A stretch of DNA of 64,000 nucleotides, taken from assembly GCF_036507355.1 (NCBI RefSeq), contig NZ_AP027877.1. One strand, given 5' to 3'. The stretch is from Escherichia coli (GTDB lineage Bacteria > Pseudomonadota > Gammaproteobacteria > Enterobacterales > Enterobacteriaceae). The first letter of the stretch is position 1; each line of letters begins with the position of its first letter. The position numbers are program-made. Shown piece after piece: positions 24,001 through 27,000 of this stretch.

Positions 24001-27000
24001 TCTCGCAAGAAATAATGTCAAATATCTCAAACTAATAAAAACAACTAAAACATTAGACGTAACACACATCCCACACGACCTGTCGCTCATAGCTTTTATA
24101 TTTATTTTTTCACATCAATGTAGATAAAAACACGCATTAAAAATGATTTGTAGAAAAGCTGCACAATAAATAGTTCATATTTAATCTGTTGCGTAGAACT
24201 ACTATTCAAAAAATCTTATTAATGAGATAATGAGATTACATCGATAACGTTCTGATGGCAGGCATACTTATCTGGGTGTGCCTCTTTTTTTTACAACTGT
24301 ACACGGTGGCGTATGACGAGAAAATATCTCACACAGGATGAAGTCTACAGGCTGATGGATGCAGCCCAGAGCATGTCCTTTCCTGAAAGAAATCGCTGTC
24401 TAATTATGATGGCTTTCATTCACGGTTTTAGGGCCAGTGAACTTCTTGATTTACGTTTATCCGATATTGATGCATCAGGAAAACAACTTAATATTCGGCG
24501 TATTAAAAATGGTTTCTCGACGACACATCCTCTTCTTCCTGATGAATATAATTTGATCAAGTTGTGGCTTAAGCAGAGGAAGTTAATTGAAAACGGAGTT
24601 GAAGGAGACTGGCTTTTTCTCTCCCGGAAACGCCGCCCTATCAGCAGACAACATTTTTTTTCTATCATTCGTGAGGCTGGAAAACGTGCAGGATTTGAAT
24701 CGCCACGGATAATCTAGACACTTCCGAGCCGTTGATAATACTGGTTTTCATATTCTGTCGGTGACATCTGATCGCTGGAACCATGCCGACGCTTACTGTT
24801 ATAAAACATTTCGATGTAATCAAAAATATCGCTGCGGGCTTCTTCCCGCGTTCCGTAGATCTTTTTCTTTATCCGTTCGCGTTTCAACAACTGGAAAAAG
24901 CTTTCTGCAACCGCATTATCATGGCAGTTACCGCGACGGCTCATGCTGCCATCCAGGCCGTGTGATTTCAGGAACGACTGCCACTCATGGCTTGTGTACT
25001 GACTGCCCTGATCCGAATGAACCAGCACCTGTTTTTGGGGATTACGGCGCCATACAGCCATCAGCAGTGCGTTCAGGACAATGTCCTTTGTCATCCGGGA
25101 TTGCATGGACCAGCCGATAATTTTGCGTGAGAACAGATCAACAACCACGGCAAGATACAGCCAGCCTTCGTGGGTCCTGATGTAGGTTATGTCCGTTACC
25201 CAACGCTTATCCGGAGCATCCGGATTGAACTGTCGCTGGAGCCTGTTGGGCGACACGATACTGGCCTCGCCTTTACGTGCCCGCGGGCTCCGGTATGCGC
25301 GAGGTTACCGACTGCGGCCTGAGTTTTTTAAGTGACGTAAAATCGTGTTGAGGCCAACGCCCATAATGCGGGCTGTTGCCCGGCATCCAACGCCATTCAT
25401 GGCCATATCAATGATTTTCTGGTGCGTACCGGGTTGAGAAGCGGTGTAAGTGAACTGCAGTTGCCATGTTTTACGGCAGTGAGAGCAGAGATAGCGCTGA
25501 TGTCCGGCGGTGCTTTTGCCGTTACGCACCACCCCGTCAGTAGCTGAACAGGAGGGACAGCTGATAGAAACAGAAGCCACTGGAGCACCTCAAAAACACC
25601 ATCATACACTAAATCAGTAAGTTGGCAGCATCACCGCCATCTTAAATGACTCTGAGGTGTCTGTTAAACCCGTGGCGATTCAATTGCCTGCAAAAGGAAC
25701 AACTAAAAAGCTGGTTTAGTGCCGTGCGTAGCCTCAATAATCCTATTGCATCGGCCTATCTCCAAGTACTTTTGCTCACTGGTGCTCGGCGTGAAGAAAT
25801 TGCGTCGCTTCGCTGGTCAGACGTAGATTTCAAATGGTCAAGCATGCGAATTAAAGACAAGATCGAAGGTGAACGTATCATCCCTCTCACTCCTTATGTT
25901 TCTGAATTGTTAAATGTACTAGCGCAATCCCCAAATTCTGACGTAAATAAGGAGGGTTGGGTTTTCAGAAGTAACAGTAAAAGTGGCAAAATTATTGAGC
26001 CGCGTTCAGCGCACAACAGAGCGTTAGTGCTGGCTGAGTTACCACATATCAGCCTTCACGGTTTACGTCGTAGTTTTGGTACTTTGGCCGAGTGGGTTGA
26101 AGTTCCCACTGGTATTGTTGCTCAAATTATGGGACACAAACCCAGCGCTCTTGCCGAAAAACACTATCGCCGTCGTCCGTTAGATCTGTTACGAAAATGG
26201 CACGAGAAAATTGAGACATGGATCTTAAATGAAGCAGGTATTACCATAAAAAACAACGTTGATATGCGTTGATTCCATTAAAAATCAACATATTACAAAA
26301 TATCATCAACTATTGAACAAGATAGATTTTCATGTATCGTAATACACAGTTTAGTCAATGATACAGCAACTACACAGGAGATAAGCCAATGGCAACCACA
26401 GCAACTGTATCCATAGAACCCACTCTGGCAGCTATCAGAGCTCGCTGGTGTATTAATTCAAGTAAAACAACTCAATCCTTTAACGATCCTGCGTCCATGG
26501 AAGAGGTTGTCGAGTATCTCAAAGGAACATACTCAGCTCTTCGCAAGTCTGTCGCATGCGCCAAACTGAAAATTTTACATCTTAAACAAAGAATGCAAAA
26601 TGCTACTAACTTTCTCGCGCGTCTGATGTCATGTAAAAATCAGGCATCCAGATCGCATCACAGTACGGCTAAATCAGCTAAAAGTGCCTTATCATCAGAT
26701 TCAGGTGATGGTAGTGACCCCGACCCCGAGCCCGAAACGTTTCCTTCTGCCTTCATTACTACCCCTACTAATTCAATAATGCTTAAAGCTTTCTTTGCCA
26801 ATATCTCAATCACTGAGGTGGCAAAATGAGCGCATTCAAACTCCCGGATACATCTCAATCACAGCTCATTTCAACAGCTGAGTTAGCTAAAATCATTAGC
26901 TACAAATCTCAAACCATTCGTAAATGGCTTTGTCAGGACAAATTGCCTGAGGGGCTACCTCGCCCAAAACAAATCAATGGCCGCCATTACTGGTTACGTA

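Follow-up and report, generated by a model that had tools for sequence, protein, structure and literature searches.

The two truncated IS1 copies in the 64 kb of E. coli chromosome analysed here (the window) are what is left of two decayed IS-in-IS nests, a finding that is real but ordinary. The original prediction held that both copies end at nearly the same internal point, that this reflects IS-into-IS insertion or IS-mediated deletion at a preferred site, and that the two breakpoints mark rearrangement joints. IS-into-IS insertion did take place at both sites, with IS2 inside IS1 (at IS1 nt 351-355) at one of them and IS1 inside the IS3-family element ISEhe3 at the other. However, the two half-copies are very probably independent scars of mechanistically different origin, with ends that nearly coincide by chance, and the joints of non-contiguous segments lie elsewhere in the region.

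The window comprises the surroundings of the thrW-linked CP4-6-type island, with the following gene order:

Left part: yahI to betT-betIBA, then ipbA', the composite IS, and intF'-yagN to yagJ.
Middle: a 760-bp IS1, afuB'C-mmuMP and IS5.
Then: a paralogous lutABC-like cluster with dld and an L-lactate permease gene, followed by IS1'-IS2'.
Right: yafY' to ykfI, tRNA-Thr at 48400-48475 (thrW) and proA.

The IS content of the 64 kb amounts to three IS1 copies, one IS2 piece, one IS3-family element and one IS5, and the stretch is otherwise not IS-rich. An exact 44-nt IS1 left end (terminal inverted repeat GGTGATGCTGCCAACTTACTGAT) is present three times in the window, at 25635 (minus strand), 30575 (plus strand) and 43996 (plus strand), where none is expected by chance. 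An IS1 right end is found in the window only for the copy at 30575, at position 31334; neither fragment has one. Alignment to K-12 IS1B and to the 760-bp IS1 gave the extents of the fragments:

25293..25635, minus strand: IS1 fragment 1, IS1 nt 1-343; canonical IS1A/B-like isoform, insB lost.
30575..31334, plus strand: degenerate full-length IS1 of 760 bp, between yagJ and afuB'; same isoform as fragment 2.
43996..44350, plus strand: IS1 fragment 2, IS1 nt 1-355; divergent isoform, at a resident IS1 site adjoining the L-lactate permease gene.

These alignments confirm that both fragments keep the left end and insA, as had been noticed. Each has the left inverted repeat and the A6C frameshift motif, and in each the 91 codons of insA are intact (25305-25580 on the minus strand for fragment 1, 44051-44326 on the plus strand for fragment 2); the InsA proteins differ from that of K-12 by 1 and 4 residues, respectively. 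Truncation has removed insB from both pieces, which are therefore fragments and not functional elements. In the 760-bp IS1, insA is kept and insB is broken, with 2-bp and 6-bp deletions relative to IS1B. The coordinates first given for the fragments, 25287-25633 and 43996-44348, went with a correct description but were 2-6 nt off, position 25287 being 6 nt inside the neighbouring IS. Similarly, the tail quoted for both copies, ...cgcgcatacagccgggcagtg, is complete in fragment 2 only, whereas fragment 1 stops at ...cgcgcatac. The break in fragment 1 falls at nt 339-343, since its final 4 nt (ATAC) are common to the neighbouring element. The gap between the two breakpoints measures 12 nt, or 12-16 nt when the ATAC microhomology is counted, in good agreement with the predicted distance of about 15 bp; the breaks follow the insA stop codon by 12 nt in fragment 1 and by 24 nt in fragment 2. 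With 92.2% identity to each other, the two fragments represent different IS1 isoforms. Fragment 1 is 98.5% identical to K-12 IS1B over 343 nt, while fragment 2 shows 93.5% identity to IS1B and, over nt 1-355, 100% identity to the IS1 at 30575 (30575-30929).

Fragment 2 was expected to adjoin an IS2 end, and an intact IS2 left end does indeed start at 44351 (junction 2, 44350/44351):

44351..44978, plus strand: IS2 fragment, nt 1-627/628; left inverted repeat TAGACTGG... intact, ends ...TATCGTCGGGTA.
44976..45235, plus strand: yafY', of which just the 3' part is left, joined to IS2 nt 627/628 via a TAT microhomology (44976-44978).

The IS2 piece is 99.4% identical to nt 1-628 of the Nissle IS2 and contains an intact orfA (44442-44807, 121 aa) together with the 5' part of orfB. 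Its assignment to IS2 is based on the left end (TAGACTGGCCCCC...), on orfA and on a 5-bp target duplication, the last being seen in relatives that have both IS2 ends. Close relatives, which are 99.97-99.99% identical over 8.7 kb, were found via a look-up of the lactate permease. In L008, L010, L013 and L014, the order is IS1(1-355), IS2(1-627), IS2(1100-1331) and IS1(351-768), and CAGTG (IS1 nt 351-355) is duplicated on either side of IS2. Other IS2 copies likewise have 5-bp duplications (GTAGC, CTGTG and ATTGC). Moreover, the junction between the lactate permease gene and IS1 is present without IS2 in many E. coli. Given the IS2 end with its CAGTG duplication and the presence elsewhere of the permease-IS1 junction without IS2, it is clear that IS2 inserted into an IS1 already present there and that the "truncation" at nt 355 is the IS2 insertion point. 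Junction 2 is thus an ordinary IS2 transposition into a resident IS1 at nt 351-355. The IS1(1-355)-IS2 junction is common to 11 sequences, which diverge beyond IS2 (into IS2 nt 1100, a helicase gene, yafY or yafW). All 11 sequences broken at IS1 nt 355 have the same flank, demonstrating one event that was inherited by descent. A search for junction 2 in 5,426 complete E. coli genomes returned 74 apparent matches, all of which are two-piece joins of unrelated neighbouring IS1 and IS2 copies, as for example in pTB202, where IS2 lies at IS1 nt 639.

The rest of IS1 that should follow a complete IS2 was looked for in the window and is absent: IS2 stops at nt 628 and is followed by yafY, beyond which lies the remaining CP4-6 right arm (ykfB, ykfF, yafX ... 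ykfI, thrW 48400-48475). At this site (site 2, 43996-44978), an old resident IS1 beside the L-lactate permease gene took up IS2 at nt 351-355, a step that the evidence given above demonstrates. At least one later deletion, with its left endpoint at IS2 nt 627, would then have generated the product IS1(1-355)-IS2(1-627)-yafY'; lost in this way were the 3' halves of both IS2 and IS1, together with several kb of the CP4-6-like island as far as mid-yafY. The end state is present in the window and intermediates are present in relatives, and from these we infer the order of events.

The neighbour of fragment 1 had been described as an IS911-like fragment. While it does belong to the IS3 family, it does not resemble K-12 IS911 at the nucleotide level: blastn (word size 11) against the K-12 IS911A region gave no match, and tblastx gave only patches of 24-47 aa with 34-58% identity, showing that this is a different element of the same family. 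The neighbour is ISEhe3, an IS3-family element of 1229 bp whose full copy is annotated as an IS3-family transposase with a programmed frameshift. The pieces in the window are 99.8-100% identical to the full copy (99.8% for the 3' part versus L003), and they have the ends TGAATCGCCACGG on both sides, with TG...CA termini, terminal inverted repeats and a 3-bp flanking repeat. The name is taken from an identical OrfA, which is "ISEhe3 transposase A" in UniRef. The parts of this composite, apart from IS1 fragment 1, are:

24696..25296, minus strand: ISEhe3 3' part, nt 629-1229; right inverted repeat at 24696, truncated OrfB ORF at 24714-25256.
25293..25296: microhomology at junction 1, ATAC (minus strand) or GTAT (plus strand); IS1 nt 340-343 = ISEhe3 nt 629-632.
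25636..25682, minus strand: ISEhe3 5' stub, nt 1-47; left inverted repeat tip at 25682, 47/47 identical to L003 876-922.

Read along the minus strand, ISEhe3 nt 1-47 (25682 to 25636) are followed by IS1 nt 1-343 (25635 to 25293) and then by ISEhe3 nt 629-1229 (25296 to 24696). ISEhe3 nt 47 at 25636 is immediately followed by the IS1 left end at 25635, and this end-precise left end within ISEhe3 means that IS1 inserted into ISEhe3 at nt 47/48. At its other side, IS1 is fused at nt 343 to ISEhe3 nt 629 (junction 1), with no IS end on either side of the joint. A three-way alignment shows both parents switching within ATAC, which is part of an extended imperfect homology, CG[C/G]ATAC (CGSATAC, 7/8). 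At site 1 (24696-25682), an ISEhe3 element thus sits between ipbA' and intF', and IS1 inserted into it at nt 47/48, as the end-precise left-end junction shows. A deletion of approximately 1.0 kb between the short homologies (ATAC; CG[C/G]ATAC) would subsequently have removed IS1 nt 344-768 together with ISEhe3 nt 48-628. The product of this deletion is directly visible, and slipped mispairing or microhomology joining is its presumed cause.

Junction 1 is present in 0 of the 5,426 complete E. coli genomes and is known from this one sequence. It is also absent from the fetched relatives, in which intF is intact and ISEhe3 is missing at that place, and neither the intF' chimeric protein nor the truncated ISEhe3 OrfB was on record in a protein search. 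Its absence from every independent assembly would fit an assembly artefact, i.e., the chimeric joining of reads from IS1 and from ISEhe3 through their common ATAC. Such an artefact is, however, almost certainly not what we are looking at. The structure is coherent and in one orientation, with exact IS ends at 25635/25636, 24696 and 25682; the outer ipbA'-ISEhe3 junction occurs in 4 independent public samples; and a mis-join would not normally put a 47-bp ISEhe3 stub beyond the IS1 fragment.

For a random pair of breakpoints in a 768-bp element, the probability of a distance of at most 12 nt is 0.032, and that of a distance of at most 16 nt is 0.043, values that are unremarkable for one pair picked by eye. 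The closeness of the two breaks, both shortly past the insA stop codon, is what one would see if IS1 had a preferred site for IS insertion or IS-mediated deletion just after insA, at approximately nt 340-356. Aligning both junctions against the IS elements, the check that accompanied the original prediction, shows instead that the breakpoints are unrelated in origin. Fragment 2 was cut by an IS2 end that has a target duplication, whereas fragment 1, which is of a different IS1 isoform, ends in an internal-to-internal fusion across a 4-nt microhomology. Furthermore, the other IS1 truncations in the fetched loci lie at nt 639 (by IS2, L026), nt 158 (L085) and nt 671 (L033), in a sample of 0.75 Mb of related sequence that contains too few independent cases to test for a hot spot. 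With only two independent events and a chance probability of approximately 0.03-0.04, we consider a preferred site very unlikely and no longer maintain that part of the prediction.

A different explanation would be survivorship. The insA product is the IS1 repressor and an inhibitor of transposition, and if remnants with the left end and an intact insA were preferentially retained, truncations would pile up after insA whatever the process that generates them. Both fragments do encode all 91 aa of InsA downstream of the left-end promoter region, and the degenerate 760-bp IS1 likewise keeps insA while its insB is broken. However, these are only two or three cases, and any break in the 437 bp downstream of insA would fit equally well, so that a 12-bp coincidence is not predicted; as an account of the near-coincident breakpoints, selection of this kind is highly improbable. 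It is conceivable that a selective or mechanistic bias could also yield an intact insA in both fragments. We thus favour two independent scars whose ends came to lie close together by chance. At both sites, IS1 and its partner IS have been left immobile, with the insA and IS2 orfA reading frames intact.

The suggestion that the IS1 breakpoints mark two rearrangement joints is not borne out. The joints of non-contiguous segments are the outer ends of ISEhe3 (24695/24696 towards ipbA' and 25682/25683 towards intF') and the fusion of IS2 nt 627/628 to yafY' at 44978, and not the IS1 truncation points. The two genes truncated at the ISEhe3 ends are:

24313..24695, plus strand: ipbA', a fimX/hbiF-type tyrosine invertase gene, 3'-truncated by the ISEhe3 right end; flank ...GGATT.
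25683..26272, plus strand: intF' (CP4-6 integrase), 3' part with the first 811 bp missing; flank starts ATTGCC...

ATT flanks both ISEhe3 ends in the window and, judged from the sequence, may be either a 3-bp duplication or a microhomology. In reference backbones, ipbA and intF are in the same orientation and tens of kb apart (betA-ipbA-hyx-ykgH-ykgGFE-rcl ... pao-intF), indicating that a large deletion ends at the ISEhe3 termini. The intF gene is intact in the relatives L074, L080, L083 and L084. The chimeric 134-aa ORF of ipbA' is found on only 4 public contigs, each shorter than 1.5 kb, and a yagJ-IS1 chimera is present on one metagenome scaffold, where intF is intact.

A separate observation concerns the point at which the IS2 piece stops. 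IS2(1-627), ending ...TATCGTCGGGTA, is joined to seven different partners at 3 IS2 insertion sites:

IS2 nt 1100 (L008 group).
A helicase gene (L006 group).
yafY (the window).
IS66 tnpC (L032).
The same tnpC, 126 nt further in (L076).
agn43 (L035).
An unassigned plasmid sequence (L033).

Two IS2 isoforms, with differences at 20-24 of 627 positions, have joints at nt 627, and the ancestral full-length IS2 is still present at one of the sites in E. coli 042, FORC_031 and strain 11. Since there are seven distinct joints with an identical endpoint nucleotide, descent does not explain them. TA is located immediately 5' of the joint in 6 of the 6 partners with known undeleted context; these contexts (GAGTA, TGGTA, CTTA, GGGATA, GCGGATA and GCGGATATA) have 2-4 nt of microhomology with GGGTA. 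The microhomologies at the joints are ATAC, TAT and GTA/GGTA. We tentatively propose, at a likelihood that falls somewhat short of even, that IS2 nt 627 (the last nucleotide of ...GTCGGGTA) is an undescribed hot spot from which deletions run rightwards, and at which a determinant in the retained left part of IS2 repeatedly makes a fixed DNA end that is resolved by microhomology joining. Candidate causes of such a fixed end are a transposase-related nick or a replication block. By analogy, transposition-associated strand switching at microhomologies would provide a plausible frame, one that has been published for true IS ends and not for internal sites. The literature searched yielded no description of a hot spot at nt 627, and likewise nothing relevant on truncated or defective IS2. 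More IS2-627 junctions were looked for by exact-pattern scanning, which gave no matches in GTDB representative genomes, JGI metagenomes or IMG/VR.

Several other accounts of the nt-627 joints were considered and set aside. A widespread mobile mini-IS2 (nt 627 joined to nt 1100) is at odds with the absence of that junction from complete E. coli genomes, and transposition of IS2(1-627) as a unit with the absence of flanking target duplications. A cryptic inverted-repeat-like end at IS2 nt 626-650 (TA/TGG...CAGACA) is a weak and speculative candidate: it lies outside the top 10 when the IS2 inverted repeats are aligned to IS2 itself, the second isoform reads TAGACA at this place, and the apparently nested L032/L076 pair would need a determinant at or before nt 627. 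Finally, a partner rule of "C at +2, G at +4" has its +2 part broken by L076 (AGGGGA).

The two nests can be compared to known systems. The K-12 CP4-6 prophage has an IS30 inside IS911, an arrangement that resembles the window in being an end-precise IS-in-IS insertion in the same CP4-6/thrW island neighbourhood. Unlike the K-12 case, the nests in the window were later half-deleted, so that one IS-IS end junction is left per site. Classical IS1 adjacent deletions, of the Reif and Saedler type, start precisely from an IS1 terminus and leave that IS1 complete. The window shares with these the presence of deletions beside IS1 in an IS-dense region, and relatives have IS1 at joints, e.g., rclC-IS1-afuC in L079, but the two IS1 fragments are truncated internally and therefore lack the defining feature of this class. 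An IS-end-mediated adjacent deletion was likewise rejected, given that junction 1 runs from IS1 nt 343 to ISEhe3 nt 629 and that IS2 nt 627 joins an internal yafY position. Deletions with 2-4 bp of microhomology at or near copy-out-paste-in IS have been described for the IS3 and IS30 families, including IS629 with IEE, the loss of ISApl1 from Tn6330, and IS30 (bioRxiv 10.1101/2023.06.07.543989). The joints in the window likewise show 2-4 nt of microhomology and lie at or next to IS3-family elements (ATAC at junction 1, TAT at the IS2-yafY' fusion and ATT around ISEhe3). In contrast to them, where the IS is removed from its ends by precise or near-precise excision, the endpoints in the window are internal (IS1 nt 343, ISEhe3 nt 629 and IS2 nt 627).

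If the proposal for IS2 holds true, nt 627 would be a natural, sequence-defined hot spot that could be dissected on a plasmid, which would be of interest to the field of transposition and illegitimate recombination. The pair of IS1 fragments is in itself a finding of little weight; it offers a worked example of nested-IS decay in an E. coli island, and a caution that look-alike IS stumps need not have a common cause. For the region itself, the joints have been relocated: the ISEhe3 ends correspond to the disappearance of what lay between ipbA and intF, and the fusion of IS2 nt 627 to yafY' to loss of part of the CP4-6-like island. These relocated joints matter for strain comparison in this lineage.

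Five features of the window and its relatives are listed first by position.
30575-31334: degenerate 760-bp IS1 isoform, the sole full-length IS1 in the window.
35348-36542: IS5, between the K-12-like mmuP side and the second lactate-utilisation cluster.
37186-43793: second, paralogous lactate-utilisation cluster, in which lutABC-like genes are accompanied by dld and a gene for an L-lactate permease.
4867-5232 and 61456-61675: BIME-type intergenic repeats, in which 93-100-bp units composed of REP-like palindromes are arrayed in tandem; such repeats are commonplace in E. coli.
About 8112-8316 of L012 (ENA ERZ28596097 scaffold_245): a further variant of the window's IS1-IS2 locus.

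The 760-bp IS1 is 91% identical to the K-12 reference copy IS1B and carries deletions of 2 bp and 6 bp in insB; the window is thus left with no intact gene for the IS1 transposase. Across nt 1-355 and one flanking base, this copy is 100% identical to the truncated IS1 that abuts the left end of IS2.

Deletions repeatedly end at nt 627 of IS2 (directly after ...GTCGGGTA), as seen in the window copy at 44351-44978 together with loci L006-L014, L032, L033, L035 and L075-L078 from other genomes. These joints involve 7 different partner sequences, 3 IS2 insertion sites and 2 IS2 isoforms, and for each of the six partners whose native context could be recovered, the dinucleotide TA directly precedes the joint on its 5' side (6/6). 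For one of the insertion sites, the full-length ancestor persists in E. coli 042. Nt 627 is not the endpoint of every deletion at the IS1-IS2 locus: L012 uses nt 205, where IS2 is broken and joined just upstream of yafW (corresponding to window position 47125), with an AA microhomology at the joint between the two.

Four related loci (L008, L010, L013 and L014, at about 7757-9385) keep both halves of an IS1 interrupted by IS2. Identity to IS1B is 93.5% in the left half, a divergent isoform, and 98.8-99.8% in the right half, which is canonical; the IS1 at the same site in NCTC11121 is a different mosaic. The unlike halves suggest that IS1 copies have undergone gene conversion or have recombined with one another.

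ISEhe3, an IS3-family element, is bordered by ATT at 24693-24695 and 25683-25685. In reference genomes its flanks, ipbA' and intF', are separated by tens of kb, yet both carry ATT; either ISEhe3 landed precisely at the joint of an earlier deletion, or a deletion with one endpoint fixed at the IS terminus proceeded via ATT/GATT microhomology.

The second lactate-utilisation cluster, whose lutABC-like genes share 83% identity with chromosomal ykgEFG, is island cargo in the window's lineage; both copies are present in L079, a close relative.

Among the close relatives L079-L088, variation is high left of the 760-bp IS1, in the counterpart of window 20000-31000. The variants include an rclC-IS1-afuC arrangement, a glycosyltransferase cluster of the gtr type together with a further IS3-family element adjoining yagK, genes of a lambdoid prophage (homologues of O, P, RecT and Gam) adjoining afuC, and an additional integrase upstream of intF. 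This segment is a hot region of IS-associated deletion and replacement.
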